A stretch of 45,556 bases of DNA, taken from contig CAYTIK010000001.1 in NCBI GenBank assembly GCA_964438025.1, positions 1-45,556 on the forward strand, given 5' to 3'. Source of the stretch: an uncultured Bdellovibrionales bacterium. GTDB taxonomy: Bacteria > Patescibacteriota > Minisyncoccia > Moranbacterales > UBA2206. A model generated the notes under the pieces. The model saw only the letters and a list, made by a program, of their open reading frames with translations, did not search any database and was not told where the DNA came from. A program made the translations under genes and the position numbers. Positions 7,329 through 24,730 of this stretch are shown piece after piece; within the stretch, counting starts at the first letter, position 1; each line of letters opens with the position of its first letter.

Positions 7329-8143
7329 TTTTTTAATTGCTTAAATCTTTTAACTGATAAATCTAAATATTTCTTTTCCATATCAATTCCAATAAATTTT
7401 CTACCGTTCATAATCGCCGCAATTCCAGTTGTTGAACTTCCAGCAAAAGGGTCAAGAATAACATCGTTTTTATCGGTACTAGCCAAAACAATTCTCCTTA
7501 ACAAATCCAAAGGTTTTTGGGTTGGGTGTTTTCCAAAAATTTTTTCAGCTGTTTTTGGTGTTCCCATTGCCCAAACACTTCTCATTTGCAATCCTGGTTT
7601 TTTTAGGAAATCTTCAGGCCAACTTCCATTTTTCATTAAAGCATAATTAAATTTATGCTTTGCTTTTTCTTCTTTTCTCGCCCAGATTAAAGTTTCATGG
7701 CTAGCTGTAAAATAACGGCAACTTAAATTTGGCGAGGCATTCGGTTTAAACCAAGCTATGTCATTCAATATTTTATATCTGGCTCTCTGTAAAGCATAGC
7801 CACATTTATAGATTGAATGATATGTTCCACTAATCCAAATTGCTCCATTTTCTTTTAAAACTCTTTTACAAGCTTTGATCCATTTTAGATGAAATTCAAA
7901 ATCAGCCTCAACGCCATTACTTACATCCCAATCTCCTTTATTCACGCTTACCATTTTTCCAGCATGAACTGTAAAACCACCGTTAGAAAGATGATAAGGC
8001 GGATCGGCAAAAATCATATCTATTGAATTTTCGGGTAATTGCTCCAGTATTTTCAAGCAATCTTCTTTATACAAAACAAAATTATCCTTTTGGAAAAAAG
8101 GTTTTTCTTTTATTGAAGTTAGGATTTTTTTATTTTGAACCAT
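7325..8143 (-). CDS. Beta-class DNA adenine methyltransferase, DpnA/MboIB-like
   Basis: MIFADPPYHLSNGG...SVNKGDWD, ISGTYHSIY, HPTQKP, ILDPFAGSSTTG. Confidence 0.9.
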   Translation of the reverse strand: MVQNKKILTSIKEKPFFQKDNFVLYKEDCLKILEQLPENSIDMIFADPPYHLSNGGFTVHAGKMVSVNKGDWDVSNGVEADFEFHLKWIKACKRVLKENGAIWISGTYHSIYKCGYALQRARYKILNDIAWFKPNASPNLSCRYFTASHETLIWARKEEKAKHKFNYALMKNGSWPEDFLKKPGLQMRSVWAMGTPKTAEKIFGKHPTQKPLDLLRRIVLASTDKNDVILDPFAGSSTTGIAAIMNGRKFIGIDMEKKYLDLSVKRFKQLKK

Positions 8144-8166: not shown

Positions 8167-8457
8167 TTAAGATTGAAATCCTATTCCGTTTTTAGGTGCT
8201 TCCGATTCTTCAATTTTACCAAATTGTTCCTCATATTTTTTTAAGTTTTCTTCGATGGCTTTCTGCATTCTTTTGAGATGCCCCGGCGAAAGAATGACCC
8301 GGGCGTTGAGAGTGCCGGTGGGCGGAAAAATATTCAAGAAATCCAGCACGAATTCTTCTTTAGTGTGCAGAATCTGCATCATATTGGAATATTCCCCTCT
8401 TAACTTTTCATCCGTAGCTTTAATTTGGATTTGAGTTGGTTGGCTTTGTTGATTCAT
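8167..8457 (-). CDS. DUF3467 family protein
   Basis: GEYSN...HTKEEFVLDF...ARVILSPGHLKR...L.KYE.QFGKI. Confidence 0.85.
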   Translation of the reverse strand: MNQQSQPTQIQIKATDEKLRGEYSNMMQILHTKEEFVLDFLNIFPPTGTLNARVILSPGHLKRMQKAIEENLKKYEEQFGKIEESEAPKNGIGFQS

Positions 8458-8950
8458 AGTTTTTTATTAAATTTATTACTTTAAATATTAAGGTTTTTTT
8501 TAAATCAATGACTTCTACAAACTTATCAAAATTTATTGCTTCAACTCCCAGAGAATTACATAATTTCATCATTGGATTATCCTGAGTTACGACAACATTA
8601 CCATTTCCATCTTTTATACATTTAACTATAAGGGTAATATCATTAGAACCAACTCTTCCGCTTTGAAGAAATAAGTCTTTACAGTTATCAATTTTTTCTA
8701 CCTTGTAACGAAAACTTAAATTCGGTTTTGATTCAAACAAAGGAATTCCGGTATTCTCTGTTTTGGTTCCAACTGAAGTATAACTCGCAAAATAGCTATC
8801 CACAAGCTCAAAAAAAATACCCTTTGAAGTCTCAGTAAAAACATTTTTATTCAAAAAAGTGGATATTTTATCCTTTTCCTCTATGCTAAAAATATTTTTT
8901 GTTAAAATTTTTTCAAGAACTATGTGAGCACTTTTATCTAAGACATACAT
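8420..8950 (-). CDS. PIN-domain-like protein
   Basis: N-terminal YVLD; C-terminal ND..LI..C...VVVTQD....LC..LGV pattern typical of PIN folds. Confidence 0.6.
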   Translation of the reverse strand: MYVLDKSAHIVLEKILTKNIFSIEEKDKISTFLNKNVFTETSKGIFFELVDSYFASYTSVGTKTENTGIPLFESKPNLSFRYKVEKIDNCKDLFLQSGRVGSNDITLIVKCIKDGNGNVVVTQDNPMMKLCNSLGVEAINFDKFVEVIDLKKTLIFKVINLIKNYESTKPTNSNPN

Positions 8951-9640: not shown

Positions 9641-9773
9641 ACCCAGTAGTAGAACTTCGACATCTTAGTAATCAACTAAGCAATCGAACTTCTTTTTAAA
9701 TTATTAATTAAATTTTTATTACCCAGTTTTTGAGTTCCTTCGGAACTCAGTCGAAGCTTCACTACTGGGCATG
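9638..9773. repeat. Composite palindromic element covering the start codon of the LexA-like gene
   Basis: Arms catacccagtagtagaacttcgac (9638-9661) / gtcgaagcttcactactgggcatg (9750-9773); internal hairpins at 9664-9680 and 9731-9749. Confidence 0.75.
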
Positions 9774-9794: not shown

Positions 9795-9847
9795 AGTGAT
9801 ATTCTATCACTACGCTATACTCTGTCAATCATGCTGCCTGTGGATAA
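9795..9847 (-). promoter_or_regulatory. Sigma70 promoter with overlapping palindrome and upstream DnaA box
   Basis: Minus strand TTGACA-16-TAGAAT; AGTGATA-ttc-TATCACT at 9795-9811; TGTGGATAA at 9839-9847. Confidence 0.7.
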
Positions 9848-9869
9848 CTTTCAATCATGACAGTAAAAA

Positions 9870-9907
9870 AGCGCTCCGTTTTTTTGGCGGAGCGCTCCGT
9901 TTTTTTG
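9870..9907 (-). terminator. Terminator-like hairpin downstream of thrC with a 17-bp direct repeat
   Basis: agcgctccg...cggagcgct inverted pair; agcgctccgtttttttg occurs twice. Confidence 0.55.
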
Positions 9908-9921
9908 TGTAAAGACACCTG

Positions 9922-11298
9922 TTAATGTCTCAACAAATATTTTTTCAAAGCTGAGTAATCATTTTGCATGATAAGCGGTGAACCAGTTCTTTGATCTACG
10001 TTTTTCATGCTGAATGGCAGTTCTGGTTCAACTCCCAGCTCCTCCTTAATAACTTCTGGAAACTTGGCCGGATGAGCAGTTTCCAGAAAAACCTGAAAAT
10101 ACTTTCTAGCTTCCGGATATCTAGCTAGAAAAATTCCTAATCCTTCCCAGCCAACCGCACCGTGCGGTTCAAGAATAACACCATAGCACTTAGAGGCCCT
10201 TTTTATCGCTTGGCGAGTTTGCCAGTCGCTGATGCTAACTGCAAAGATTCCTTCTCGCATTAGATCCAGGCGGGGATATCTGTAAACTTTTCCATTTTTA
10301 TCGACCGTCCCTTGATACAGTTCAAACAGTCGAGCCAGATTGCTTGGATGTCCAACATTCATAGCATTAGACAAGCAAGCGCGAGAAGGGGAAATTTTTT
10401 TATACTCGCCCGCTTCCACAAATCGAGGAAATTCGTCATTTTCATTGGTCGCAATAATCAACTTCACTATGGGTAAGCCCATGCGTCGGGCATATTCACA
10501 GCCCAACATGTTGCCAAAATTCCCCGAAGGAACTGAAAAAAAGATCGGTTCTTTGCCATTTGCCAGTTTCGTATAGGCATAAAAATAGTAAATGATTTGC
10601 GGTAGAATTCGGCCAATATTAATAGAATTGGCCGAGGTCAGATTTAAGCCAGTCAAATCTGAATCAGAAAAAGCTTGCTTAACCAGATCCTGGCAATCGT
10701 CAAATTTGCCATCTTCGATAGCAATAGTTTGGACATTGCCACCAATAGTATCCAGCTGTTTTTTCTGTCGACCGCTCACTTCCGCTAAAGGATAAAGGAT
10801 CGTCACATCAATTCCTTCCACTCCTTTAAAAGCTTCGCCCACTGCGCTACCTGTATCGCCAGAAGTGGCAACCAGAACATGCAGGCGTTGGTTCTGATCT
10901 CGAAAATGGCTCATGAGTCGTGCCATAGCCCGAGCAGCAAAATCTTTAAAAGAAGCGGTTGGTCCCCGATCAAGGCGCATGACATATTGGCGATCAGTGA
11001 CATGTTCTATGGGTACAGAAAAATTATATGACGCCCTGGAAACTTCCAGAAGTTCCTCAAAACCAATTTCTTCTGGAGCAAAGAATTTTCTTAAGATCAT
11101 GTTTGCTATAACCCAATAGTCCACTCTCATCATCTGTTCAAGCTCCATGGTCGATACTTGCGGGATGAAATTTGGCATAAAAAGTCCGCCATCCGGCGCT
11201 TGACCCATAATCAACGCTTTTTGAAAAGACACTTCGCTAATAAATCCTCCCGACAAAAGACGATTGGTACTAAAATAGCCGATTACTTTTCTTCCCAT
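9922..11298 (-). CDS. thrC: Threonine synthase
   Basis: APDGGLFMP, GPTASFKDF (PLP Lys), ATSGDTG, SANSINIGR, VPSGNFGN, TAHPAKF. Confidence 0.95.
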   Translation of the reverse strand: MGRKVIGYFSTNRLLSGGFISEVSFQKALIMGQAPDGGLFMPNFIPQVSTMELEQMMRVDYWVIANMILRKFFAPEEIGFEELLEVSRASYNFSVPIEHVTDRQYVMRLDRGPTASFKDFAARAMARLMSHFRDQNQRLHVLVATSGDTGSAVGEAFKGVEGIDVTILYPLAEVSGRQKKQLDTIGGNVQTIAIEDGKFDDCQDLVKQAFSDSDLTGLNLTSANSINIGRILPQIIYYFYAYTKLANGKEPIFFSVPSGNFGNMLGCEYARRMGLPIVKLIIATNENDEFPRFVEAGEYKKISPSRACLSNAMNVGHPSNLARLFELYQGTVDKNGKVYRYPRLDLMREGIFAVSISDWQTRQAIKRASKCYGVILEPHGAVGWEGLGIFLARYPEARKYFQVFLETAHPAKFPEVIKEELGVEPELPFSMKNVDQRTGSPLIMQNDYSALKKYLLRH

Positions 11299-11459
11299 AA
11301 AACACCTCCCTTTCGTTTTTACAGTTAGATTAAACTGAATTATTTTAGGAACTATCCATAAACAACAATAATATAGAATAACATCCGCCTGCTTTTTGTC
11401 AATATCAAAGATTGAACAAAAAACAATCCCGATTACTCGAGATTGTTTTAAAAAAACTT

Positions 11460-11488
11460 GTTATATGCTCTATGTTTTATGCTCTATG
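11460..11488. repeat. Heptamer tandem array next to the ftsZ stop
   Basis: gttatat gctctat gttttat gctctat. Confidence 0.6.
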
Positions 11489-11490
11489 AT

Positions 11491-12690
11491 TTACTTCCCC
11501 ATCTTCCTCCGAATAAACGCCGGTATTTCCAACTCATCGTCTTCTTCCAAATTCTTTTCTTCCCGGACAAAGGCGGTAGTTCTAGACGGAACTTTTTCTT
11601 CCACAATCATCTTGGTCTCGACTTTTTTCGCTGGAAAAGTTATTCTGGGATTTTCTTTTCTTTCTTCATCTTTTTTGTGGAAATCTTCCCGCGTCAGGCG
11701 CGACAATTTTTCAATCGGCGTTTCTCGGACTTTTTCCGCATCAAAACCAGTAGCAACTACCGTGATTTGGATCTCGCCTTTCCGGATGGAATCATCAATT
11801 ACGGCTCCAAAAATAACTTTGGCGTTCGGATCAATGGACTCGGTAATAATATTGGCGGCTTCGTTGATTTCCAGCATCGTCAGGTCGCTGCAACCGCTGA
11901 CATTAAAAAGCACGCCTTTGGCTCCGTCAATGGATAATTCCAAAAGTGGGCTGTTGATGGCCGCCCGGGCCGCTTCGGCCGCGCGATTTTCTCCCGAACC
12001 TAGACCGATACCCATCAAAGCGGAACCGCTATTGGCCATAATAGCTTTCACGTCGGCAAAATCCACATTGACGATCCCCGGCTTGGTGATCAAATCGGAA
12101 ATGCCCTGGACGCCTTGGCGCAAAACATCATCCACAATCTTGAAGGAATTAATGAGCGTAGTTTTTTTATCGATAATTTGTAAAAGTTTGTCGTTAGGAA
12201 TCGTAATTAAAGTGTCCACTCTTTCTTTTAAATTCTCCAAGCCTTCATCGGCGATGGCCCTCCGCTGCGCGCCTTCAAAAGCAAACGGCTTGGTCACGAC
12301 CGCGACTGTCAGGGCGCCCAATTCCTTGGCAGTTTCCGCCACGATCGGTGCAGCGCCGGTACCCGTGCCTCCGCCTAATCCGCAAGTGACAAAAACCATA
12401 TCCGCCCCTTTCAAAACTTCCTGGATCTCCTCCCGATTTTCTTCAGCCGCCTGGCGCCCGATATCCGGATTCATGCCCGCACCCAACCCTTTGGTCAGGT
12501 TCTTACCGATATGCACTTTTTCTTGCGCCCGGTTCTGGTGCAAATCTTGCGCGTCAGTATTAATGGCGACAAATTCGACGCCTTTCAACTTTGTCTCGAT
12601 CATCCGGCTGATGCCGTGGCCTCCTGAACCGCCGACCCCGACGACTTTAATCCTTGCAAAAGTTTCTACGGGGGGTTTTATTTCTGCCAT
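11491..12690 (-). CDS. ftsZ: Cell division protein FtsZ
   Basis: GVGGSG, GGGTGTG, NVDFAD, C-terminal LEIPAFIRR. Confidence 0.99.
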
Positions 12691-12826
12691 ATTTTTTGTG
12701 ATAATCTGATTTTTTTCAGATTAATAAAGTATAAAATTTAAGATAAACCGTCCCAAAATCCTCCTTCCCAAACTTTTTTCTTTAGTAAATAAACTTAGCA
12801 CATCTTATTGCAATGTGTCAAATTTA

Positions 12827-12925
12827 TCTCGCACCTTCAAAAATCCCGTAATTTACTTCCCAAAAAACAACTGCTGGGGATAAGTTATTCCTGCAAAATT
12901 CAGCATTTTGCAAAAAGGTGCGGGA
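12827..12925. repeat. Second MITE/REP-like element between ftsA and ftsZ
   Basis: Ends tctcgcacctt / aaggtgcggga share CTCGCAC with the 5432 element; TTTA on both flanks. Confidence 0.5.
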
Positions 12926-12974
12926 TTTATTTTTGTTTTTATTTCTGTTTGATTTTTATCTTAAAATGCCTTCC

Positions 12975-14234
12975 TTAAGGCAAAAATTTGCCCAGCCAGT
13001 CTTTCAGGCTTTTTACTGAACTGCCGATGCCGGTGGAGATGTTGTTCGCCAGCCGGTTGCCGGCGCCTGTCCCTCTATTCATCGTCGAATTTTCCAAACC
13101 CCAAAGGATTAAACCAGCCACAGTGGCAAAAGCCGGATCGTCAATCTTGTCCACTAGTCCGCCCATGGGCAGCGGAAAACCGGTCTGTGCCGGCAGCGCC
13201 AAAATATTTTTCGCCAAATCGACCGATCCGGAAATTTTTGCCGTGCCGCCGGTCAAAATGATGCCGGCCGGCAGCAATTTATCGCGTCCGATTATTTTCA
13301 ATTCCTTATTGACCATGGAGAATATTTCTTCCAGCCGCGCTTCAATTATTTCCGCCACGTGATGGCGGGAAACCAAACCTTCTTCATTGGTATCGATTTC
13401 CGCCAGATTGACATCTTCTTTTTTGCTGACTTCGCCCGGCAGCGCGCTGCCATATTCCAACTTCACTCTTTCTGCCACTTCAATGGAAGTTCGCAGGCCA
13501 ATCGCGATATCGTTGGTAATATTATTACCGCCGATTGGCAAGATCGCCGTGTGCAGCAAGTCATTTTCTTCAAAAACCGCGACCGAAGTCGTGCCGCCGC
13601 CAATGTCGATCAAAATCACTCCCAATTCTTTCTGCCTCTTGGAAAGGATAGCCTTAGCCGCCGCGAGTGGGGCGAGCACAAAATCATCCATTTCAATATC
13701 GGCTTGTTCGAAACATTTGGCTAAATTGCGGATATAGGGCGTCGTGCCTTCAATAATCAACGTATCGGATTCCAGACGCACACCGTTCATGCCGAGCGGA
13801 TCTTTAATATTTTTTTGGTCGTCCAGAGAATAATTGCGGGCAATCACGTGGATGATTTCTTTGTTGGGCGGGACCGAAATCGCTTGGGCCGCGTTGATGA
13901 CCCGGGCCACATCATCTTCGGTCACTTCCCCGTCGGCCCGGCCGATGGCCACCACGCCTTTGGAATTCTGTGAAGTGATCTGGCTGCCGCCGAGGCTGAC
14001 AATCGCGTGGTCTATTTTCAACCCGCAATTCATTTCCGCTTTTTCCTTGGATTCCCGGACGGAATTCAGCGCTTCTTCCAGATCGACGATTATGCCTTTA
14101 CGGATGCCGGCTGATTCGGCGATGCCCACGCCAATAATCCGAGGCATCTCTTCCTCGGGAAAAATTTGAGCCACGACCGTCCGGACATTGGACGATCCGA
14201 CATCCACACCAACAATAATGTCGTTTCGCGACAT
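12975..14234 (-). CDS. ftsA: Cell division protein FtsA
   Basis: GVDVGSS, LIDIGGGTT, IGGNNITNDIA, AERVKLEYG, LTGGTA, amphipathic C-terminus. Confidence 0.98.
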   Translation of the reverse strand: MSRNDIIVGVDVGSSNVRTVVAQIFPEEEMPRIIGVGIAESAGIRKGIIVDLEEALNSVRESKEKAEMNCGLKIDHAIVSLGGSQITSQNSKGVVAIGRADGEVTEDDVARVINAAQAISVPPNKEIIHVIARNYSLDDQKNIKDPLGMNGVRLESDTLIIEGTTPYIRNLAKCFEQADIEMDDFVLAPLAAAKAILSKRQKELGVILIDIGGGTTSVAVFEENDLLHTAILPIGGNNITNDIAIGLRTSIEVAERVKLEYGSALPGEVSKKEDVNLAEIDTNEEGLVSRHHVAEIIEARLEEIFSMVNKELKIIGRDKLLPAGIILTGGTAKISGSVDLAKNILALPAQTGFPLPMGGLVDKIDDPAFATVAGLILWGLENSTMNRGTGAGNRLANNISTGIGSSVKSLKDWLGKFLP

Positions 14235-14300
14235 GGGTGAAAATTATTATTTTTTATTTAAATTTTAACTCTTTTATCATACAGCAAAAAAAGGCAAAAA

Positions 14301-14666
14301 TCAAAAAGCGGCTTTTAAATGGGGATAAAAAATGATGACGCCGATCACAATCGCCAAAATCGAAGTTACGAGCACGGCCGCCGCCATCAGGTCCTTGATC
14401 AGCTTGGCATACGGATGGACGCTGGGCTTGAGCATATCCACCACCCTTTCCATGACGGTATTCAGGAGTTCCATGATCAAGGTCACCATGATGACCAGAA
14501 AGAGCAGCACGGTTTCCCATTTGGCCAGATTGAAATAAACCATGGCAATCACCACCAAAATAGCCGTGACTAACTCGTTTTGGAAATTTTTTTCATGCCG
14601 GATGACATAGCCCAAACCGCGCATGGCATATTGCAGGCTTTTGGTAAATTGTTCTAAGCGTTCCAT
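14301..14666 (-). CDS. dgkA: Prokaryotic diacylglycerol/undecaprenol kinase family protein
   Basis: EKNF, ELLNTVMERVVD, AKLIKDLMAAAV; follows ybeY. Confidence 0.9.
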   Translation of the reverse strand: MERLEQFTKSLQYAMRGLGYVIRHEKNFQNELVTAILVVIAMVYFNLAKWETVLLFLVIMVTLIMELLNTVMERVVDMLKPSVHPYAKLIKDLMAAAVLVTSILAIVIGVIIFYPHLKAAF

Positions 14667-15106
14667 TTAAATTTAGTTAATAATTTACTTTGCAGCGCGA
14701 ACATTTTCAGACCATGTTTAAAACCTAAAAGATGTAAAATTCCGTGCAAAAAAACTTTAACCAGTTCAGTTTGGGTTTTTAAGCCGTTTTTTGAGGCATA
14801 AGCCTTAATATCATCATAGCATAAAATTATCTCGCCTAAAAACACCTCTTTTTCTCGGCTTTTCTTTATTTCCTCAAAATTTTTAAATTCCGCGAAAGAC
14901 AAAACATCCGTCACCGCGTCCTTTTTCCGCCAAATCCGGTTAATTCTTCTTATTTCCGCCCGAGAAACTAGGGCCAAGCTTAAAGTAAATTTTTTGGCCG
15001 GCAAAGCCAAGATTTTATCGGAAAATATTATTTTCCAGACCGCCGCAAAAAAAGCCTTCCTGACCGGACTCTTAGCTTGGTTATTAATTTCGAGATTAAG
15101 TTGCAT
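14654..15106 (-). CDS. ybeY: rRNA maturation RNase YbeY
   Basis: TDVLSF, LGEIIL, HGILHLLGFKH. Confidence 0.93.
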   Translation of the reverse strand: MQLNLEINNQAKSPVRKAFFAAVWKIIFSDKILALPAKKFTLSLALVSRAEIRRINRIWRKKDAVTDVLSFAEFKNFEEIKKSREKEVFLGEIILCYDDIKAYASKNGLKTQTELVKVFLHGILHLLGFKHGLKMFALQSKLLTKFKWNA

Positions 15107-15150
15107 AAAACAGGCATTCTTTAGCTCATTTCTATTATACCACTAAAACA

Positions 15151-15190
15151 AAAACAGTCCCTCCGCCGGCTGGCGGATTGGGACTGTTTT
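15151..15190. terminator. Terminator hairpin carrying a TCCGCC-N4-GGCGGA palindrome in its loop
   Basis: aaaacagtccc [tccgccggctggcgga] tt gggactgtttt. Confidence 0.65.
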
Positions 15191-15209
15191 TTATAAATTC
15201 AGTAATAAT

Positions 15210-15707
15210 TTAATATGCTCCGTAGCCAGCTGGTTTCAAAAGAACATCCCAAATATGTTCGTTCCCGACTGTCCCCTGACTCATAAGCATAGAGAATGGC
15301 CCCCACAAACAATATGGAGTTCCTTTCACGGCTTGCGTTGATGGCTTCCCATCTTTTGCACATCCCGCATCCCAAGCAATTTTATAATGCCAAATTTCTC
15401 CGGAACCACCTTTTACTTTTCCGTTCCATTCATTATTTTCCCAAGCGGCATAAGGCGGATTGGACCAGCCTTCGGCATTGCCCCTGTCCCATTCGGCATT
15501 CCATTTCATGACCAATTTATCCTTGGCATAAATTCCAAGATAATTAGCAGGCAAACCTTTCGCCAGAGACCAGCTTTCACCTGTACCATTAAAAATTCTG
15601 GCATCATAATTATAGCCGAATTCATTAAAACCACCGGCAGCAAATGCTACGCTAACCAATGCGAAAGAGAAAACAAAAATTCCCAATATAATCGCGTATT
15701 TTTTCAT
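15210..15707 (-). CDS. Secreted Trp/Asn/Gly-rich hypothetical protein
   Basis: Signal peptide ending AFA; SD GGGAGG. Confidence 0.8.
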   Translation of the reverse strand: MKKYAIILGIFVFSFALVSVAFAAGGFNEFGYNYDARIFNGTGESWSLAKGLPANYLGIYAKDKLVMKWNAEWDRGNAEGWSNPPYAAWENNEWNGKVKGGSGEIWHYKIAWDAGCAKDGKPSTQAVKGTPYCLWGPFSMLMSQGTVGNEHIWDVLLKPAGYGAY

Positions 15708-15847
15708 AATTCCACCTCCCTTCTTTGTTTAGTTTTTAAAATTTTCTGATTTATCTGACACCTTTATTATATAACACGAAAAAGAAAAAAGAAAACGGCA
15801 AGCTCGATGAGACAAAGCCTGCCGTCTGGCACAAAATAATCCGACCT

Positions 15848-16195
15848 TTACCGGCAAATGGATACTCTCTGGGGAGCCGTTCCGAGGTATTCTCCCCATT
15901 GATTATAGACCGGGACATAGCGGATATCCTCCCAGCATTGTGGATAGACAATAACAGGAGTCCAAATTGCCCCCGTAACCACGCCGCCGAATATTAGCCC
16001 GCCCCAGGGAAAACCGCCGTGATGACCGCCGCCGCGATAATGGCCACCCGTATGGCCGCCATAATGGCTACCGCTGTGATAACCTCCGCCGCCGCCGCGA
16101 TGGCCGCCAGCCGAAGCTACGCTGGAAAAAAAGCAGATCAGGAACACAGCCAGCACCACCGCCAAAACCACTATTACTACTTTCTTCATGGTCAT
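15848..16195 (-). CDS. Secreted Gly/His-rich hypothetical protein
   Basis: Signal peptide, GGH(Y) repeats, SD AGGAGG, hairpin terminator at about 15794-15824. Confidence 0.75.
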   Translation of the reverse strand: MTMKKVVIVVLAVVLAVFLICFFSSVASAGGHRGGGGGYHSGSHYGGHTGGHYRGGGHHGGFPWGGLIFGGVVTGAIWTPVIVYPQCWEDIRYVPVYNQWGEYLGTAPQRVSICR

Positions 16196-16427
16196 TCCCT
16201 CCTTTCTGGGAAAAAAGTTTGCCTTTCAAAGGACTCCGGCCTTATTTTGTAGTACCCTATTCTAATATAAAACCTCTGAAAAATCAACTGCCTAAAAAAT
16301 TTAATAAGAATAGTTCTTGATTTTTCTCTTGACTTTTTTGGAAAAATGCGCTATAAAAGTAAGTTAACAAAGCGGCTTTTTTTATTAAGAAATATACCCC
16401 CTAATTCAATTACTCAAGGAGGAAGCG

Positions 16428-16838
16428 ATGAAAAAAGGACTGGTTTTTTGTTTAATCATAGTCGCGGTGTTAGGCTCTTTCCCAACCAATCTATCGGCTC
16501 AGGATAAGTTTCGGCTCGAAAATTTATCCAAAAGTCTGGCTTATTTATCCCGAGTTCGAATCCTTGCTAACGTAGCAAGCCAATGTTGTGAACAGCAAAA
16601 ATATTTAACCGCTGTCGATTATCTTAATCAAGCTTCCAAGCTGACTGAGGCCGCCGAATCGTCCCTAGCCATAGAAATTATGTCCCCTTACAAAAGGGCG
16701 GCTACTCAAGAGGATATCAAAAGCTTAAAGAACATGATCGACGATATGAAAAAAAATACCGCCAAGATGATCCTGCTGGAGCGGCTAATAGAAAATCTGG
16801 AGAAAAAAAACAAAAAAGTTCCAGATAAATCTCTTTGA
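16428..16838 (+). CDS. Secreted helical hypothetical protein
   Basis: Promoter TTGACT-17-TATAAA from 16329, SD AAGGAGG, signal peptide. Confidence 0.75.
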   Translation: MKKGLVFCLIIVAVLGSFPTNLSAQDKFRLENLSKSLAYLSRVRILANVASQCCEQQKYLTAVDYLNQASKLTEAAESSLAIEIMSPYKRAATQEDIKSLKNMIDDMKKNTAKMILLERLIENLEKKNKKVPDKSL

Positions 16839-16883
16839 CCTTGAAATTGTTTACCCAAGATATGCTTGAGAAAGGAGTTTAAA

Positions 16884-17159
16884 ATGAACATTGCAATTTG
16901 GGCCAGATTAATGACAAAAATGTTTAGAGACGGAGAGGTAATTATCGAGACTATAAGTCCCGATGGAAAGTATCCCGAAGCCAATGAAAAAGCAATCGGC
17001 GTAAGCAAGGCCTTTCACCCAATCGGTTCAAGCATCAACGTTGAGCTTGTAGGCGACCCTTGCCAATATGGTTTCATCCCCGAAGCCATAGGCGAAGGTT
17101 TAATCAAGGGAAAAACTTCCAGTCCTCTGGGGCTAGAGAGGAACATTCGATTGGCCTAG
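16884..17159 (+). CDS. Hypothetical protein
   Basis: ATG at 16884 behind AAGGAG; terminator follows. Confidence 0.65.
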   Translation: MNIAIWARLMTKMFRDGEVIIETISPDGKYPEANEKAIGVSKAFHPIGSSINVELVGDPCQYGFIPEAIGEGLIKGKTSSPLGLERNIRLA

Positions 17160-17186
17160 GCATCGCCATGCCAGGCCAAAAACCAA

Positions 17187-17226
17187 AAAGGCGTCCGCTG
17201 CACAGCGCGACGCCTTTGTTTTTTTT
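17187..17226. terminator. Bidirectional intrinsic terminator
   Basis: aaaggcgtc...gacgccttt plus T tract between convergent genes. Confidence 0.7.
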
Positions 17227-17246
17227 CTTGAAATTTAAAATTAAAT

Positions 17247-17987
17247 TTATTCTTTGACCGCTTTGACTTTCAGGCTTTCAATCGGCATGCCTTGATATTG
17301 TTTCTTGCTGATATCCGTGTTTTCCGAGAAAATTTCTACGTTAAAACCCGCCACTTTCATTTTGGCGATATAAATATCTTTCATAAGCGCGCCCGCCACG
17401 CAGCCAGATAACAAATCTTTATTATTCTTAATTTCTTCTGGCAATTCTTTCAATAATACGATATCGGAAACAAACATTTTCCCGCCAGTTTTCAAAACTC
17501 GGTAGGCTTCCGCAAAAACCTGATCCTTGTCTGGCGACAAATTAATCACGCAATTGCTGATAATAATATCCACGGATTCATCTTCGACTGGCAATTTTTC
17601 AATCTCGCCTAATTTAAATTCTACATTTTTGTAATTGTATTTTTCGGCATTGGCTTTGGCTTTTTCCACCATTTCCGGCACCATATCCACGCCGATGACT
17701 TTTCCTTGTTCGCCGACTTTTCGCATCGCTAAAAAACAATCGAAACCGGCGCCAGAACCTAAGTCCAAAACCGTATCGCCTGATCGCATTTCCGCCATCG
17801 CGACTGGATTGCCGCAACCCAAGCCCAAATTAGCTTCCGAAAATTTTCCAATATCTTCTTTGGAATAACCAATCTCCTGGGCAATTCTTTCCTGCTCCGC
17901 TTTAGCGCCACAGCAAGAACAGCCACTGCCTTTAGCAATTTGCGTATAACTTTCTTTGACAATCTTTTTCACTGCATCTTGTTGCAT
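17247..17987 (-). CDS. arsM: Arsenite S-adenosylmethionine methyltransferase
   Basis: [35 protein letters not shown]. Confidence 0.9.
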
Positions 17988-18013
17988 AATAATATTTTTA
18001 AAATTTATAACCG

Positions 18014-18910
18014 CTACTTGAAATTTTGCATCTCATCTTTGGTGGGTATTTTCAGCTCAAATTTATTGCTCCCAACCGTATATAGCACTTGCTTGCCAAA
18101 TTTCGAACCTGCGATTCCCAACACTTCGTCAATCGTGGAATGGTGCCATTTTTCACTGCCGGATTCCGTGGCAATACGGAAAATTATCTCTTGCCCATAT
18201 TTTAAACCCACTGCAGACAGCGGAAAAGCGCTGATGATATAATCCGTGCCTGAGCCTCCGCCCACCATGCCAATCTGCGTCAATGGCACTGCATTTCTCA
18301 AAGCTTGGGACTCCACAGTTTCATCTATAAAAGCATAATGGGAAATTTTTGCTCGGCAGGCATGAGAGGTGCATTTCCAACTAACTCCATTGATTAAGGA
18401 AGTGCTGTATTTTTCTCTTCCGGCCGAATATAAGTCTTCTACTTTCAAAACAAACCCGTCGATATTATCACCATCAACGGCCGGCTGATTTTCCGGAATG
18501 ACGCCATACATCTGATGTTTAATATAGAGATATTCCTGATCGGCTCCCATCTGGAAGATTTTATAATCCAGATACGGTAAAGCATACGGCTCGGGATTAT
18601 TGTAGTTTTCTTTGGGATTCTCTTCTTTCTCGGCAAAAAAATCGTTCTGTTCATCTTCAATTTTTATGCCCTTCGCCAGCGCCGCTTCGGATTTTTCCAA
18701 TTCGCTTTGAGTAAACTGTCTCGCGTCATCAGCTAGCGCCAATAAATTTTGCTTTTGCGCTTGTTCTTGCTCGTTCGCTTTCTCTTGGAGAATCTTAGCC
18801 TTCTCGGCCATTCTTGCCGCTTGATTATTATCCTGCCTTGTTTTTGAAAATATAAAAACAGCCGACAGAATCAAGATTATACAGATTATAAAAATGTATA
18901 TTTTTTTCAT
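18014..18910 (-). CDS. Membrane-anchored/secreted hypothetical protein
   Basis: N-terminal TM, Gln/Glu-rich helix, unrecognised C-terminal domain. Confidence 0.75.
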
Positions 18911-19242
18911 AATATTTTTTAAGATTTTGATTTTAACACCATTTCTTCGTATTCTTCCTACAAAACTATCCTGGTATACTCCCCTCCAAAGGCGGACAGG
19001 CAGTATTTAAGGATGGTTTAGTGGTGAATGCTTATAAAGTTTTTCGAGATAATTATACAAGGTAAATAATTAATTACTTACATACTAATTATACCACTAT
19101 TTTAAAACCCGGCATTGAGCCGGGTTTCTGGGTAAAGCTAGCAAAATATATCGCGCATAATCTTTGGCACAACCTCTCAGATATCAGATTTGGCCATTCT
19201 CGAGGTGAGTTATTTGCTTGGTACTAAATACTAGCGAGACCT

Positions 19243-19356
19243 TTATTTTTTCTTTTTTTTCTTGTCTGTTTCGGCAACAGTTGTTGACTTATGCTCTTTG
19301 GCATATTTTTCTGAAACATACTGCCCATCCTTGGCATCCCGATATTTTTTAGTCAC
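19243..19356 (-). CDS. Small basic peptide (37 aa) downstream of ImmA-like gene
   Basis: Not in ORF track. AGGAGG SD then GTG; MTKKYRDAKDGQYVSEKYAKEHKSTTVAETDKKKKKK. Confidence 0.75.
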   Translation of the reverse strand: MTKKYRDAKDGQYVSEKYAKEHKSTTVAETDKKKKKK

Positions 19357-19359
19357 TTT

Positions 19360-19973
19360 TTACCTCCTTTCAAAATTATTTAAATCGTTTAACGCAATCT
19401 CAGCCGCTCCCGAAGAAACCAAAAATTGGGAAGAAATATGCCCTGCCAAATATGAATTTAGCGTTTTTCATCTATATTTTTAAGACTATGCTTTTTGCTA
19501 ACTTCTCTTAATACTTCCTGGCGCATTTTTAGCAATTCTTCTCTGGGCAATAAAAGATAATTGCCAAATTTATTGGCTTGGACCTCCAGATGTGAATATT
19601 CTTCCGCATCAATTTCATTTATAAAGTCTGCAATATCGGAAAAACTTGAAATTTTTAAATCTTTATAAAATTTTTCGTGCAAAATATAATGCCCCAACTC
19701 ATGCGCTAAAGAAAATCGGAATCGATTCGTGTCATTTTCATAATTTTTTTGATCGACATAAATCGCGGAAAAATCCGAAGTTATTTGTGCATCAACTCCA
19801 CATTGATCCATCAAATTCGGTATGGGTATTATTTTTATTTTCAGCTTGATTTCTATTATTTCTTCAATTTCCACAGGAATATCTTTGCCCCAAAATTTTA
19901 ACCTGAATTCATCCGCCTTGATCTTTATTTGATAATTTCCAATGAATGGAACAATTATGTTTTTGTAGTTCAT
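19360..19973 (-). pseudogene. ImmA/IrrE family metalloprotease with an apparent 1-nt frameshift near 19465
   Basis: RFSLAHELGHYILH and EVQANKF motifs; ORF stops at 19458, but adding one A to the A5 run continues TLNSYLAGHISSQFLVSSGAAEIALNDLNNFERR* to 19360. Confidence 0.8.
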
Positions 19974-19990
19974 TTCTCCTTAAATAATGC

Positions 19991-20374
19991 CTAAGCATTT
20001 TTGATTAAGCTAATTATTTTGTCTATATCTTCTTTGTCAGGTTTTTTATTTTTCAGCGTTCGAAAAAATGCCGGCAGAGCGGCTACTAATTCTCTTTCTT
20101 CCATAATTTCAAAGGGGATTATACCTTGAGAAACATTAGCTTGAAAAATAAAATTATCTAATTCTTTTTTATCTTTCTTGAGACCAAGTGTTTTAGCCCA
20201 TAATTCCAGTGTTTTTTTATCTGAAGGCGGAGCAATTTTTCCCCTTTCAATCTTGCTCCAATTGCTGGGATCATAATTGATTTTTCGGCACATTTCCCGC
20301 AAAGTGATTTCTTTTTTGATTCGAAGCTCATACAAAAGTTCTCCGAATTTTTTTAAATTTTCCTGCGTTTTCAT
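19991..20374 (-). CDS. XRE-family HTH regulator
   Basis: FGELLYELR...ITLREMC...SNWSKIERG. Confidence 0.9.
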   Translation of the reverse strand: MKTQENLKKFGELLYELRIKKEITLREMCRKINYDPSNWSKIERGKIAPPSDKKTLELWAKTLGLKKDKKELDNFIFQANVSQGIIPFEIMEERELVAALPAFFRTLKNKKPDKEDIDKIISLIKNA

Positions 20375-20397
20375 AAAGTTTATTTAATATTTATGCC

Positions 20398-20417
20398 TGT
20401 GGTATAATATTACCACA
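20398..20417. promoter_or_regulatory. Palindromic operator candidate for the XRE gene
   Basis: TGTGGTA-taatat-TACCACA overlapping the -10 region; minus-strand TTGACA near 20430. Confidence 0.6.
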
Positions 20418-20606
20418 CTAAGAAAAACTGTCAAGACTACAAAAAAAGCGGCTTATTACCGCTATTTTTCGTTATCCATAATTTCTATCCCTCAGCAATT
20501 TTTATTTCCCCCCAAGCGTAACCCAATTCCAATCTCGATAAACAAAAGTAAAATCCCGATAAGAATAAATAAAAATTTTTTCGAGATAATCATACGAGGT
20601 AAGTTT

Positions 20607-20642
20607 ACCCCGTAGCGTCCGCCGCGGACTGCTTCTGGGGTA
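20607..20642. repeat. REP-like palindrome
   Basis: taccccgtagc gtccgccgcggact gcttctggggta. Confidence 0.65.
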
Positions 20643-20647
20643 ACTAA

Positions 20648-20947
20648 TTACTTATTTTTCTTACGATTCTTAATCTTAAGCTGTTCTATCTTATTCTTTA
20701 AATAGCTGATGGTTTCAAATCCACCTCTTTCACGCATTTGGATTTCTTTAATAACCTTGTCTTTCATTTCTCTTGCTGTTTCCTTTTTGCGTTTTGCTTC
20801 AATAAATTCAGCATAAAATTCCGGATATTCTTCTTGCAATTTTTTCCGCCCAGCAATTACTTTGCCACTGGCGCCCTCCTGTGCCGCCAGCCTTTCCAGT
20901 CGAAACGCTTCGATAATAAACGGGTGATTTTTTAAAAGTTTTGTCAC
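20648..20947 (-). CDS. Hypothetical basic helical protein
   Basis: Co-oriented 99-aa ORF with GTG start; no family recognised. Confidence 0.55.
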   Translation of the reverse strand: MTKLLKNHPFIIEAFRLERLAAQEGASGKVIAGRKKLQEEYPEFYAEFIEAKRKKETAREMKDKVIKEIQMRERGGFETISYLKNKIEQLKIKNRKKNK

Positions 20948-20985
20948 AAGAAAGTGTTACTTAACTAATTACTGAACAAAATTTA

Positions 20986-21543
20986 TTATTTTAAATCCTC
21001 ATTCATTTTTTCAAATCCTTTTTCATCCAAATATCCACTTAGATCATAGCGTTTATTTTTAAAATCAAATGATTCTTTTTTGACTGGATTGACCCACAAA
21101 AAGAAATTATACATACTTCCTTTCCCAACTTTTTTAAATTTTCTGCACAATAATCTAAGTTTTTTTGTTGAAATTGTTATTATGTGTGGACTAATAATTC
21201 TTCTGCCAGCCTTTTTGTCTTCTTGAAGAACATAAATTAGAAAAATAAAATAATCCGCATTGTTCCTAAAAATTACATCTTTTTTAAAGAAAAACCACCC
21301 TGGAGATCCATCGCCGTATTTTATTACCTCGCTTTTTCTTGGTTCAAACGCTCTACTCCCCTTAACTTGCACTGTTAAAGACTTCTTATTGTTTATATTC
21401 ATTAAAATTAAATCGATGTCTTTCATTTGTGCATTAAGTGGCATAAAAACTTCAATGTTTTTAGTAGTTTCACTTCTCAATATCCCAGAAACAACTGCCT
21501 CATCAGTATTTAAGCTCCAAAAATTTTTATACGCTTTTCCCAT
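20986..21543 (-). CDS. PD-(D/E)XK nuclease-fold protein
   Basis: E...DIDLIL...TVQVKGSR. Confidence 0.7.
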   Translation of the reverse strand: MGKAYKNFWSLNTDEAVVSGILRSETTKNIEVFMPLNAQMKDIDLILMNINNKKSLTVQVKGSRAFEPRKSEVIKYGDGSPGWFFFKKDVIFRNNADYFIFLIYVLQEDKKAGRRIISPHIITISTKKLRLLCRKFKKVGKGSMYNFFLWVNPVKKESFDFKNKRYDLSGYLDEKGFEKMNEDLK

Positions 21544-21628
21544 AAATTTATTTTTCTCTGAATTTTGAAGTAAACGATTAATTACATAATTTTATGAGAA
21601 AATTATCAAATCTATTCTTCGATAGAAG

Positions 21629-22333
21629 TTATAAAAAAAATCTTTTAAATTTATCATATTTATCAAACGTTTCTTTTATTTGTTTTTTGTAATTATCAAA
21701 AACATCATCATACAAGACATCCGCTTTCCAATAAGTTAAACCAAGATCCTTGGGATTTACCCCGCTAAGCATTCCTTTATTATGTTGGCACCTTAAATGA
21801 TCAAAAAACAAATCTCTACAAAAACCACCACAAAAATTTTGGGTATAAATAAATGCTAAAAAATTATTTTTATTATTTACCTTATAAAATAAAGCATCTT
21901 TTTCTTTTTCCTTTCCATGCAAAATAGGAATGTATCTTTTATAATAACAATCTATATCTTCTTGAATTTCGCTTTTAATATTAATTAAAAACAAAAATAC
22001 TGGAAAATTAAACCCTTTCCAATAATTTAAGGTTTCTATCTTTATTTTAAAATCGCTTTTATATTCCGGCAGTAAATTTCGCCTGCTTTTTTCTTTTACA
22101 AGTTTAATTTTTTTATTTGTACGTGTTTTGACCTGTACTCCGAAAAGCAATTGGGTTGGTTTTTCTCCATAAACCCATTCACACAAAAAATCCAATCCAA
22201 CATCTTTCGAACTGTCAATTTTATGTGCAATTGCATATTTCGAAATTAAGCTTTCGAAAAATGCTTCTCCCTTATTTCCTATTTGCTTAGATTTTAAATA
22301 CTTAACCATACACACACTCTCCGAATTACACAT
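21629..22333 (-). CDS. DUF4365-like PD-(D/E)XK nuclease
   Basis: GNKGE...DVGLDFLCE...FGVQVKT...LNYW...PVFLFL; start may be ATG at 22309. Confidence 0.75.
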   Translation of the reverse strand: MCNSESVCMVKYLKSKQIGNKGEAFFESLISKYAIAHKIDSSKDVGLDFLCEWVYGEKPTQLLFGVQVKTRTNKKIKLVKEKSRRNLLPEYKSDFKIKIETLNYWKGFNFPVFLFLINIKSEIQEDIDCYYKRYIPILHGKEKEKDALFYKVNNKNNFLAFIYTQNFCGGFCRDLFFDHLRCQHNKGMLSGVNPKDLGLTYWKADVLYDDVFDNYKKQIKETFDKYDKFKRFFL

Positions 22334-22368
22334 TTAACCACTCTCCTGAAATTTAAAAATTTTAGGCG

Positions 22369-23163
22369 TTATTTTTTCTTACATGATTTAATAAACTCTT
22401 TTAGCAATAAAGCACTAAATGCAATCTGATTATTTTTTAAGTTAATAGTCGTTTCATATAGTGTTGGTTTTTTATTTTTTTTAATTAACCAAACAACACC
22501 ATCCAGTATGGCAATATGAATAGCTTTTTTACTTTTATGTTTAACAAATGAAATGCCTTCTCTAAAACTCTTATCCTGTGTTCCGCCACTCATACTAATA
22601 AATTTTGCTTCACCAATTATGAATTTATTGTCAATTTTCAACACAAGATCCAAGCCTTTTTGACCTTTATAGCCCAACTCTTCTTTCGCAAACTTCATCA
22701 AAGCCTCATCTCCACCGTCTAAAATGGCGATTTTTTTATTTTTTAAAAACTTATCTCTGGGTAAAACGGGATACCCTAACTTATGAAGATATTTTCTAAA
22801 CAGCTGACCAATCTGACGCGAAGGTGTTTTGGCTCTACTTGCTCCAATAATCAAATTATCAAATCCCATTTTAAATAACCTTTCGCCTATACGTTTAACC
22901 GTTTTAGGATTTTTATTAATTGCTTCTTTGTCTTTTCTTAAAAAACCAATATAAGGATCATCTATTGGAAATCTTTCAAGATCTAATAATATCAATATCA
23001 ATTCTTTGCTTTTTTTTCTAATTAATGCTTTTTTTATTTTTTCTTTTTCTTCTTCATTAATATTTCTCTCCAGCTCTAAATTAATAGGATATATATCTGA
23101 TAAATTATCAAGATATCCCCGAGAATTTGCTAGCAATATGCTTTTTTTAACCCATTCATTCAT
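22369..23163 (-). CDS. Tsp45I-family type II restriction endonuclease
   Basis: W..KSI.LAN..GYLD.L..IYP, FPIDDPY, NPKTV.RI, RQIG, KGLD...IGEAKF...GG.Q; family recognised from memory. Confidence 0.7.
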   Translation of the reverse strand: MNEWVKKSILLANSRGYLDNLSDIYPINLELERNINEEEKEKIKKALIRKKSKELILILLDLERFPIDDPYIGFLRKDKEAINKNPKTVKRIGERLFKMGFDNLIIGASRAKTPSRQIGQLFRKYLHKLGYPVLPRDKFLKNKKIAILDGGDEALMKFAKEELGYKGQKGLDLVLKIDNKFIIGEAKFISMSGGTQDKSFREGISFVKHKSKKAIHIAILDGVVWLIKKNKKPTLYETTINLKNNQIAFSALLLKEFIKSCKKK

Positions 23164-23205
23164 TTTATTAAAATAAAAATTTTTTAATTATAGTTTTGTT
23201 AAATT

Positions 23206-24360
23206 TTAAAATAGTGCTGATTGTCTTTTGGCATAATTTAAGTTATTAAGATATAAATAATTAATAAACTTATAAACGAAATCGAAGGAAATTCTTTTTC
23301 TGTTATTATCGCGGAAGTTGGTCAAAAATAAGGACAAATGTTTTTCTCTAGCTTCTTGGAGCTCTCTGTTAAAACACTCAATTAGTTTTTTTTGCTCACT
23401 AATAGATAGGGGGGTCTTAAACAGCAAATAAGCCATGTTTCTAGAAGAATTTTTGCCAATCAAGCCATAAACTTTATAGTCTCTTATATTTTCTAGCCGA
23501 ATTTTTTTGCCATTTTTACTATCTATCGCCCTGAGAAAGAGGATATTTTTTTCTACAGCTTTTTTAAACTGTTCATCTACCAGATGGTCTTCAACATTTT
23601 TTATGTTATTAAAAGCTAATTTAATTTTTATCGGCCCATCTTTAACATGATCTGCAGTTAATCTGTAGACGCCCAAAACATTTTTTACCGAATTGATTTT
23701 AGCCGCAAATTCACCACCGATTTGCCAACTATACGCTTCGGATAATTTTACTTTTATTTTATTTCCTTCTGGAAAAATGTAGGCATCAAAACTTATTTCG
23801 CTTCTATATTCTTTCTTTTTTCTATAGTAAAAAGAAATAACATTGTATGTGGTATCATCAAAAACTTGCTCCGTAAAGATATTAAGCCTCACGATATCAA
23901 ATTTTTCAAAAAATATTCTTCTTATTTTTTCAGAATTTTCAGCCGAAAGAAAATTAAGCGGAACAATCATTATTCCTTCTTCAGAATCAAGAATAGACAT
24001 TATGGATAATTGATATAAATCTTCAAAAATAGAGTTTCGGAAGTATTTATCCTTTGTTTGTTTATCCGCCTTGTTCACATTTAAATATGGCGGATTAGTT
24101 AAAACAAAGTTATATTTTTTAGGGGATAAAATACTATCATCTAAAAATACTTTTCTATTGTCCACGTGTTTTTTATCAATATCGTATCCGAAAATTTTTC
24201 CAACCTTATTATTTTTTGCCCATTGAATTAAGTCTCCCGCACCAACAAAAGGATCAACAACTATCTTGTTTTTTATAAATTTTTCAAAACCACATAAAAT
24301 ATTATCAGAATTTGTGGTAAAAAATTGTCCTAATTGTTTTTTCTTAATTATTGCGTTCAT
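23206..24360 (-). CDS. Gamma-class N6-adenine DNA methyltransferase
   Basis: LGQFFT, DPFVGAGDL before TNPPY, DLY, IVPLNFL. Confidence 0.88.
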   Translation of the reverse strand: MNAIIKKKQLGQFFTTNSDNILCGFEKFIKNKIVVDPFVGAGDLIQWAKNNKVGKIFGYDIDKKHVDNRKVFLDDSILSPKKYNFVLTNPPYLNVNKADKQTKDKYFRNSIFEDLYQLSIMSILDSEEGIMIVPLNFLSAENSEKIRRIFFEKFDIVRLNIFTEQVFDDTTYNVISFYYRKKKEYRSEISFDAYIFPEGNKIKVKLSEAYSWQIGGEFAAKINSVKNVLGVYRLTADHVKDGPIKIKLAFNNIKNVEDHLVDEQFKKAVEKNILFLRAIDSKNGKKIRLENIRDYKVYGLIGKNSSRNMAYLLFKTPLSISEQKKLIECFNRELQEAREKHLSLFLTNFRDNNRKRISFDFVYKFINYLYLNNLNYAKRQSALF

Positions 24361-24379
24361 TTTTATGTTGATATTATTT

Positions 24380-24433
24380 ATAGTGATATTATATCACTAT
24401 TTGTCAACCCCTAAAATCCCCTGCTGTGGATAA
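24380..24433 (-). promoter_or_regulatory. Palindrome and DnaA box upstream of the MTase/REase operon
   Basis: ATAGTGATA-tta-TATCACTAT (24380-24400), minus-strand TTGACA (24402-24407), TGTGGATAA (24425-24433). Confidence 0.7.
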
Positions 24434-24435
24434 CT

Positions 24436-24603
24436 TTATTTTTTACTCCGATAGTCGCGAATGATTAAACTGCCATTGGCTTTTTTCACCACTACTCTTT
24501 GTCTTTCGCGCCAGCCTAATTCCCTCACCATTTCAATCGGCAAGGTTAGGCCGATACTTCTTTTCCCAATCCTAGTTAATTTTCTAATTTCTTTATTTTT
24601 CAT
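24436..24603 (-). CDS. AbrB/MazE/SpoVT family DNA-binding protein (55 aa)
   Basis: RKLTRIGKRSIGLTLPIEMVRELGW; ATG at 24603 preferred because the longer ORF reads through repeats. Confidence 0.85.
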   Translation of the reverse strand: MKNKEIRKLTRIGKRSIGLTLPIEMVRELGWRERQRVVVKKANGSLIIRDYRSKK

Positions 24604-24605
24604 AT

Positions 24606-24642
24606 TGTTACTTACCTTGTTACGTAACAAGTTACGTAACAA
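24606..24642. promoter_or_regulatory. Tandem GTTACGTAAC palindromes, probable AbrB autoregulatory operator
   Basis: ttgttacgtaacaa (24617-24630) then gttacgtaac (24631-24640). Confidence 0.6.
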
Positions 24643-24650
24643 ATAATTTT

Positions 24651-24698
24651 CTGGATTCCCGCTGGAGTTTATACCCGCAAAGCGGGTGCGGGAATGAC
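24651..24698. repeat. REP-like element GTCATTCCCGC...GCGGGAATCCAG with inner hairpin
   Basis: ctggattcccgc tggagtttat acccgcaaagcgggt gcgggaatgac. Confidence 0.75.
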
Positions 24699-24730
24699 AA
24701 TACTTCATGCTCCCAATATTACTCCTAACG

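Follow-up and report, generated by a model that had tools for sequence, protein, structure and literature searches.

A candidate LexA-type operator shared by restriction-modification and nuclease operons in the predicted SOS regulon of a Moranbacteria-like family

Introduction

The boxes bound by LexA repressors include GAAC-N4-GTTC, the Cheo box of Gram-positive bacteria, and CTGT-N8-ACAG, the SOS box of Escherichia coli, and for Bacillus subtilis and Corynebacterium glutamicum the LexA regulon has been reported to include methylase or restriction-modification (RM) genes. A different arrangement is C-protein control of type II RM systems, where a small helix-turn-helix (HTH) gene in the operon, acting with paired C-boxes upstream, sets the expression of methylase and nuclease. 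A LexA-binding motif and an SOS network of the Patescibacteria have reportedly been described by Sanchez-Osuna, Barbe and Erill (Environ Microbiol, 2017). Here we analyse a palindrome, AGTGATA-N3-TATCACT, that lies over the promoters of two operons with methyltransferase and nuclease genes in a 45,556-nt stretch of DNA from an uncultured bacterium of the Moranbacterales (contig CAYTIK010000001.1 of assembly GCA_964438025.1; the whole stretch is called the window below). The first of these operons begins with a gene for a LexA-like repressor, and we argue that the palindrome is likely to be the operator of that repressor.

Regulators that respond to DNA damage and also control anti-phage defence are known as well, among them CapH/CapP and WYL-type regulators. 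According to the excerpted text of PMC12392091, an activator of the Moraxellaceae is a further regulator of this sort. For LexA itself, the excerpt of PMC8565304 gives a duplication model in which a lineage-specific motif is accompanied by a second paralogue with another motif.

Results

One palindrome over two promoters

The palindrome is found at 9795-9811 (site A, AGTGATATTCTATCACT) and at 24382-24398 (site B, AGTGATATTATATCACT), just where an earlier reading of the window, made from its letters alone (the sequence-only reading), had located two exact copies, and the arms at site B do reach the 9 bp which that reading had given them (Table 1). Shuffled versions of the window contain 0.07 matches on average, and none out of 100 contained two. 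Both copies are followed on the plus strand, again as described earlier, by TGTCAA (9823-9828 and 24402-24407) and then by CTGTGGATAACTTT (9838-9851 and 24424-24437). The genes concerned are all on the minus strand, where the order runs AAAGTTATCCACAG, a spacer, TTGACA, the palindrome and the ATG of the first gene. The remark that there was no other copy holds for the window, where even a search allowing two mismatches found no third one in 45,556 nt, but not for the genome, which has a third exact copy at C31:2101-2117 (C denotes a contig) and a copy with one mismatch at C21:11341-11357.

On the minus strand an extended -10 element forms the centre of the palindrome, TGATAGAAT at site A and TGATATAAT at site B. 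TTGACA at site A is a proper -35 for what is predicted to be a good promoter. At site B only 8 nt separate it from the TATAAT that the palindrome contains, so it cannot be the -35 of that hexamer; the promoter there would rely on its extended -10. The sequence-only reading had cautioned that overlap with an extended -10 raises the chance of coincidence, and extended -10 promoters of the form TGnTAnAAT are very widely used in this genome. The overlap nevertheless fails to explain the symmetry: ATCA follows only 5 of the 34 genomic TGATA[G/T]AAT sites (ATCAC follows 4), and these five are the four strong box sites described below and a weaker one at C21:5946.

Four strong sites in the genome

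The assembly (G000) has 914 kb in 40 contigs at 39% G+C and is rated 98% complete. We scanned it with a matrix built from 23 sites in 29 orthologue promoters, the window's own site excluded, whose training sites score between 21.0 and 28.4 bits. Four sites reach 25.7-28.2 bits; the next one scores 18.8 and the rest 15.4 or less. A genome-wide motif scan, which had been suggested as a check on the two-operon idea, thus returns four strong sites, one at the lexA-like gene and three at nuclease or methylase units, with nothing else above 19 bits. The four units headed by the box are the lexA-like operon (operon A), a methyltransferase/Tsp45I operon (operon B), an operon on C31 running from an SDH-type protease gene to an EcoRII-C/Dcm pair, and a small nuclease-like gene on C21.

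The operon behind the box at C31:2101-2117 encodes an SDH-type protease, a 261-aa protein, a DUF6941 protein, a 169-aa protein, an EcoRII-C nuclease and a C5 methylase. The 18.8-bit site is a split-arm site inside this same operon. At L001 (C31), 3190-3225, the operon contains a promoter-like site whose AGTGATA and TATCACT arms stand 15 nt apart, which equals the gap between the outer half-sites of three-half-site promoters in relatives (TTGACAGTGATA...AGTGATAnAATATCACT).

The box at C21:11341-11357 heads an open reading frame (ORF) of 117 aa that matches no family and in which we recognise, by eye, a PD...EAK pattern typical of restriction-type nucleases. This box forms the centre of a much longer palindrome whose arms measure 19 nt (L002, 11322-11376). 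A tRNA gene adjoins the ORF, and genes for a UvrD-like helicase (1095 aa) and a trypsin-like protease (625 aa) lie ahead of it. We rejected the notion that the C21 box heads a known RNA, as an Rfam search of C21:11200-13000 gave only a tRNA.

The LexA-like repressor

The LexA-like protein has an S24 peptidase domain that scores well above the family cut-off (PF00717, 62 bits against 23.3), and its alignment to TIGR00498 spans residues 2-211 of 220, the architecture of a full-length LexA. In 28 orthologues a Cys-Gly pair, which aligns with the Ala-Gly cleavage site of a second LexA in this genome, the serine of a GDSM motif and the lysine of an ATIK motif are each conserved in at least 90%. Full-length orthologues with 59-90% identity are present in most families of the order and in 65 of the 70 genomes of the protein's own family. 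The best explanation would be that this is the main, vertically inherited LexA of the Moranbacteria-like family to which the genome belongs.

The second LexA, at C3:9272-9910 (locus L003/L136) and accompanied by a divergent small HNH gene, scores 134 bits and passes the TIGR00498 cut-off. We considered on that account whether it might be the main LexA and rejected this, because the C3 type is limited to 6 of 18 family genomes and was found in none of 12 genomes from other families of the order. Promoters of C3-type genes carry a different palindrome, GACT-N4-AGTC, in 5 of 7 cases, and are without the AGTGATA box (box matrix scores of -0.1 or lower).

The box and its targets in relatives

The 30 best orthologue loci are mostly alike in the architecture of their upstream regions. 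Leaving out the window's own locus, the box (at most 3 mismatches, within 260 nt of the start) is kept in 23 of 29 lexA-like loci; a motif search upstream of orthologues had been proposed as a check. Three of the remaining six have the box one gene further upstream, before a Bro-N gene or a 129-aa gene that precedes lexA (L015 via L043, L017 via L102, L030 via L058); no box was located at L026, whose upstream flank is the same as that of L030. The expectation that a LexA-like protein would act at its own promoter and at that of a second RM operon agrees with this conservation and with the matrix, which picks both site A and site B, the binding itself being a prediction from the box.

At one mismatch or none the box occurs in 54 of the 71 family genomes, with up to 11 copies in each, while a reversed control pattern occurs in 6 genomes, once each. 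In a phylum-wide sample from outside the order, the box is in 47 of 400 genomes, never in more than 2 copies, and the control in about 40. Since the phylum sample resembles its control and the family lies well above, the enrichment is specific to the clade.

What lies behind the box in relatives was annotated from 64 boxes in 65 loci, with the first gene called for 62; after removal of duplicates and of the window's own, 59 were scanned. The first genes most often encode Bro-N proteins (17), followed by LexA-like proteins (5), N6_N4 methyltransferases and RarA (4 each), RecA and DUF3276 (3 each), and DinB, FtsK and RhuM (2 each); uvrA follows a box once. Further genes in box-headed operons of relatives are those for R.HinP1I, DpnI, DpnII, TdeIII, GmrSD, Vsr, a D12 methyltransferase, PemK toxins and GIY-YIG nucleases. 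A box of at least 16 bits precedes recA in 10 of 30 loci, none of these among the 13 from genus g6 and all ten among the 17 from elsewhere. Standing before recA, dinB, uvrA, rarA, Bro-N genes and RM systems, the box would be the SOS box of this lineage, with RM cassettes wired into the regulon. What emerges is a predicted regulon of the SOS type to which RM and other nuclease cassettes have been repeatedly attached. The initial proposal of a LexA-controlled RM regulon survives in so far as LexA-type control of both operons has comparative support; it has to be widened in that the regulon is not specific to RM systems but appears to be the lineage's SOS regulon.

Genes and history of the two operons

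The features of the window are collected in Table 1. In the same-genus genome and in one other, rmuC lies directly 3' of the lexA-like gene, and the four genes that stand between them here occur at that position in none of the 29 orthologue loci, which points to the insertion of a four-gene cassette into a lexA-rmuC operon. The cassette's methyltransferase gene has a box-bearing promoter of its own in G229 and G247 (76% identity), with the MutH-like gene next to it in G229 (81%). For the 206-aa nuclease, scores against the MutH and Sau3AI models stay under the respective cut-offs; the PADLOC model REase_II gives a match at 4.2e-09. The leader of the lexA-like gene holds a 128-bp element that fills exactly the span between the position of the start codon in orthologues (ATCATCATG) and the present ATG; ends similar to those of the element occur on contigs C2, C4 (twice) and C12.

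Table 1. Coordinates of the predicted boxes, promoter elements and genes in the window.
Feature	Position	Strand	Remarks
LexA-type box A, AGTGATA-N3-TATCACT	9795..9811	.	over extended -10 of lexA-like operon; 25.7 bits with orthologue-promoter matrix
Promoter of operon A	9801..9828	-	-35 TTGACA 9828-9823, 16-nt spacer, TG, -10 TAGAAT 9806-9801; matches 11/12
AAAGTTATCCACAG, companion element containing TTATCCACA	9838..9851	-	site A
128-bp insertion, ~20-bp terminal inverted repeats	9642..9769	-	5' leader of lexA-like gene
LexA-like repressor, 220 aa	8978..9640	-	winged HTH + S24 peptidase; Cys-Gly, Ser, Lys conserved; first gene of operon A
176-aa protein, no family	8420..8950	-	first gene of four-gene cassette between lexA-like gene and rmuC
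DUF3467 protein, 96 aa	8167..8457	-	
N6_N4 DNA methyltransferase, 272 aa, DPPY (MTase272)	7325..8143	-	192 bits
MutH/Sau3AI-like nuclease, 206 aa	6708..7328	-	
RmuC, probably last gene of operon A	5594..6676	-	directly after lexA-like gene in two relatives
LexA-type box B, TAGTGATAT-N-ATATCACTA	24381..24399	.	holds extended -10 TGATATAAT, 24396-24388 minus strand; 28.2 bits
AAAGTTATCCACAG, second copy	24424..24437	-	site B
Eco57I/N6_Mtase-type methyltransferase, 384 aa	23206..24360	-	NPPY at residue 89
Tsp45I-family type II restriction endonuclease, 264 aa	22369..23163	-	237.6 bits
DUF4365 nuclease-like protein, 234 aa	21629..22333	-	
Two ORFs without family, 185 aa and 99 aa	20648..21543	-	

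Operon B, closed by a terminator-like hairpin at 20463-20447, has its predicted methyltransferase and restriction endonuclease genes side by side, the arrangement by which a type II RM system is recognised. A family search of the ORFs of both operons found no gene for a controller-type HTH protein, the LexA-like protein aside. The earlier suggestion that the box takes the place of the usual C-protein control is in line with what the two operons contain: neither has a C-protein gene, and each promoter has one palindrome and no paired C-boxes.

After operon B, at 19458-20440, come an XRE-type HTH gene (127 aa, 19991-20374) and an IrrE/M78 peptidase gene (171 aa), a pair that we take to resemble the DdrO/IrrE or CapH/CapP damage switches. 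The XRE gene's own extended -10 is overlain by a palindrome, GTGGTA-N6-TACCAC (TGTGGTATAATATTACCACA). Directly upstream of site B, at 24436-25690, lie a RhuM/Fic-domain gene (319 aa) and a MazE/AbrB-type gene (90 aa), which have the look of a toxin-antitoxin or defence unit.

A DnaA-box-like companion element

DnaA boxes are bound by DnaA and are clustered at the origin. The companion element found at both window sites includes an exact copy of TTATCCACA, which we take to be the consensus 9-mer of the DnaA box. The 9-mer occurs 32 times in the genome, where 9-mers of the same composition average 7.5, and it lies within 90 nt upstream of 30 of the 64 boxes in relatives, where about 0.1 of 64 would be expected by chance (as estimated from the 32 copies in this genome). 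Of the 10 genomic copies of TTATCCACAG, three are at box promoters and the others mostly ahead of other promoters. A cluster of perfect DnaA-type boxes was looked for near dnaA and not found. When modules from different genomes are compared, similarity ends outside the palindrome and the companion element, and the spacers vary. The companion element suggests a second regulatory input.

At three loci of relatives upstream of the lexA-like gene (L013, L016 and L019) a GC-rich hairpin sits inside a TTATCCAC element and is flanked by two copies of TTATCCAC, which gives the box the appearance of a target for small hairpin elements.

Discussion

The operator reading and what weighs against it

We consider it likely that the LexA-like repressor encoded at 8978-9640 uses the palindrome as its operator, and that the RM and nuclease cassettes belong to an SOS regulon without a controller of their own. 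How such a switch would work can be sketched from the anatomy of the promoters. The two arms enclose the extended -10, so that a repressor dimer seated on them would cover this element and exclude RNA polymerase. Upon DNA damage, or perhaps in the presence of single-stranded DNA made by a phage, RecA would prompt the repressor to cut itself at the Cys-Gly bond through its Ser/Lys dyad, which would free the promoters, as the conserved residues and the regulon in relatives suggest. In this genome the box would then control four units, including the repressor's own operon with its inserted four-gene cassette of methyltransferase and MutH/Sau3AI-like nuclease before rmuC. Defence genes would probably be switched on together with the response to DNA damage.

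A number of observations weigh against this reading. First, the protein scores below both curated LexA cut-offs (TIGR00498, 77.2 against 110.95; PF01726, 18.6 against 23.7), even if membership of the LexA family remains likely by architecture, residues, predicted autoregulation and regulon. Second, neither a Pfam search nor tblastn found recA in the assembly, although 69 of 71 family genomes have it; the gene probably lies in an assembly gap, and in the same-genus genome recA is at a contig end. Third, uvrA, rarA and a Bro-N gene are present in this genome and the matrix scan shows no box at any of them, so the SOS character of the box rests on the relatives. There, the annotated sites are the first listed, not randomly drawn ones, and related genomes are not independent of one another. 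Binding, cleavage and induction, finally, are what we infer from sequence. It also looks risky for a cell to make more restriction enzyme while DNA is under repair, and how it would tolerate this is a puzzle.

Alternative explanations

Might the palindrome be the operator of some other regulator, such as the neighbouring XRE/IrrE-type pair, with the lexA-like gene just one of its targets? The XRE gene does have a similar-looking palindrome over its own extended -10, the genome does encode a second LexA, and it is from comparative evidence that we assign the box to the LexA-like protein. However, the spacing of the XRE palindrome differs from that of the box, and the second LexA is confined to 6 of 18 family genomes and comes with a GACT-N4-AGTC palindrome of its own. 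The box stays with the lexA-like gene in 23 of 29 orthologue loci of differing context, its targets in relatives are classical LexA targets, and in genus g6 its arms change along with the HTH region of the LexA-like protein. The g6 promoters have the arms GTGTTA/TAACAC (right arm in 12 of 12, left arm in 9 of 12, two loci being identical). The right arm also varies between TATCA and TAACA in orthologues outside g6, a point that counts against the operator reading too, so that this co-variation of box and repressor is only suggestive. Taken with the other observations, it leaves control by another regulator unlikely.

We rate lower still the idea that the module of about 70 bp (AAAGTTATCCACAG, spacer, palindrome) is no switch at all but a mobile-element end or a recombination site carried along with defence cassettes. 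Such an origin would account for the fact that one module heads differing cargo genes across genomes and that similarity stops at the module; the four-gene cassette did insert into the lexA-rmuC operon, and small hairpin or terminal-inverted-repeat elements do land in box promoters. If the module were a single repeat, however, we would not expect its two elements to be separated by unrelated spacers of 11 to 27 nt, as is natural for two protein sites. The module also heads core genes, recA and lexA itself among them, and no integrase or transposase gene adjoins site A or site B.

The least probable explanation is that the sites have in common a strong promoter (extended -10 plus -35) whose palindromic look is due to chance, for while TGnTAnAAT supplies 9 of the 17 box bases and extended -10 promoters are widespread in the genome, four of the only five TGATA[G/T]AAT sites followed by ATCA are the strong box sites, positions beyond the promoter consensus are invariant in the 23 orthologue sites, and the reversed-pattern control is nearly empty in the family.

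A wider proposal

Returning to the LexA-like protein as the regulator of the box, we offer a broader and decidedly tentative proposal, one that may well prove wrong in whole: that the SOS repressor of this ultra-small family of the Candidate Phyla Radiation (CPR) serves as a common switch for incoming defence cassettes. In this view many type II RM systems that are unrelated to one another, along with stand-alone nucleases, toxin-like genes and a protease-linked system, would all stand behind one composite module, in which a lineage-specific LexA box on the -10 is joined by a DnaA-box-like site at about -50. If this were so, defence would be raised by DNA damage or stalled replication, phage attack being one occasion, and it would be the host's LexA that keeps new cassettes in check, not controllers they bring along. 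Gene regulation in CPR/Patescibacteria is almost unexplored, and members cannot be grown alone; a regulon with a single repressor, a single box of 17 bp and four targets in a genome of 0.9 Mb is a concrete one to test. Should it hold, LexA repression would be an alternative to C-protein control for restraining restriction enzymes, and defence would be tied to a DNA-damage signal in a further case, this time via the classical SOS repressor.

Comparison with known systems

The predicted system resembles the LexA/SOS systems of other phyla in its putative self-cleaving repressor of the winged-HTH and S24 type, in the predicted autoregulation of the repressor gene by a palindrome over its promoter, and in a regulon that includes recA, dinB, uvrA and lexA, here in relatives. 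It differs from them in that the box is built into the extended -10, the protein scores under the curated cut-offs and several type II RM or nuclease cassettes are among the targets. With the Patescibacteria study of Sanchez-Osuna et al. (2017) it shares the superphylum, the regulator family and the comparative approach. Our box may or may not be the motif published there; being enriched only in this family and some neighbours, and not in the phylum sample, it may differ from it. As in the duplication model excerpted from PMC8565304, a lineage-specific box stands here beside a second LexA with a different palindrome, and the arms GTGATA/TATCAC with their N3 spacer are unlike the LexA motifs in that excerpt.

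In the literature searched, of which titles and the beginnings of abstracts were covered, we found no description of plain type II RM operons behind SOS/LexA boxes as a recurrent pattern, which is not proof of absence. C-protein systems likewise operate through a palindrome at the RM promoter, but the regulator predicted here is a chromosomal, putatively self-cleaving LexA-type protein shared with repair genes, and there is a single box in place of paired C-boxes. With CapH/CapP, the WYL-type regulators and, to the extent of its excerpt, the Moraxellaceae activator (PMC12392091), the system would have in common that defence genes are coupled to a DNA-damage signal; unlike in those systems, the coupling predicted here would run through a classical LexA repressor and would extend to plain type II RM systems.

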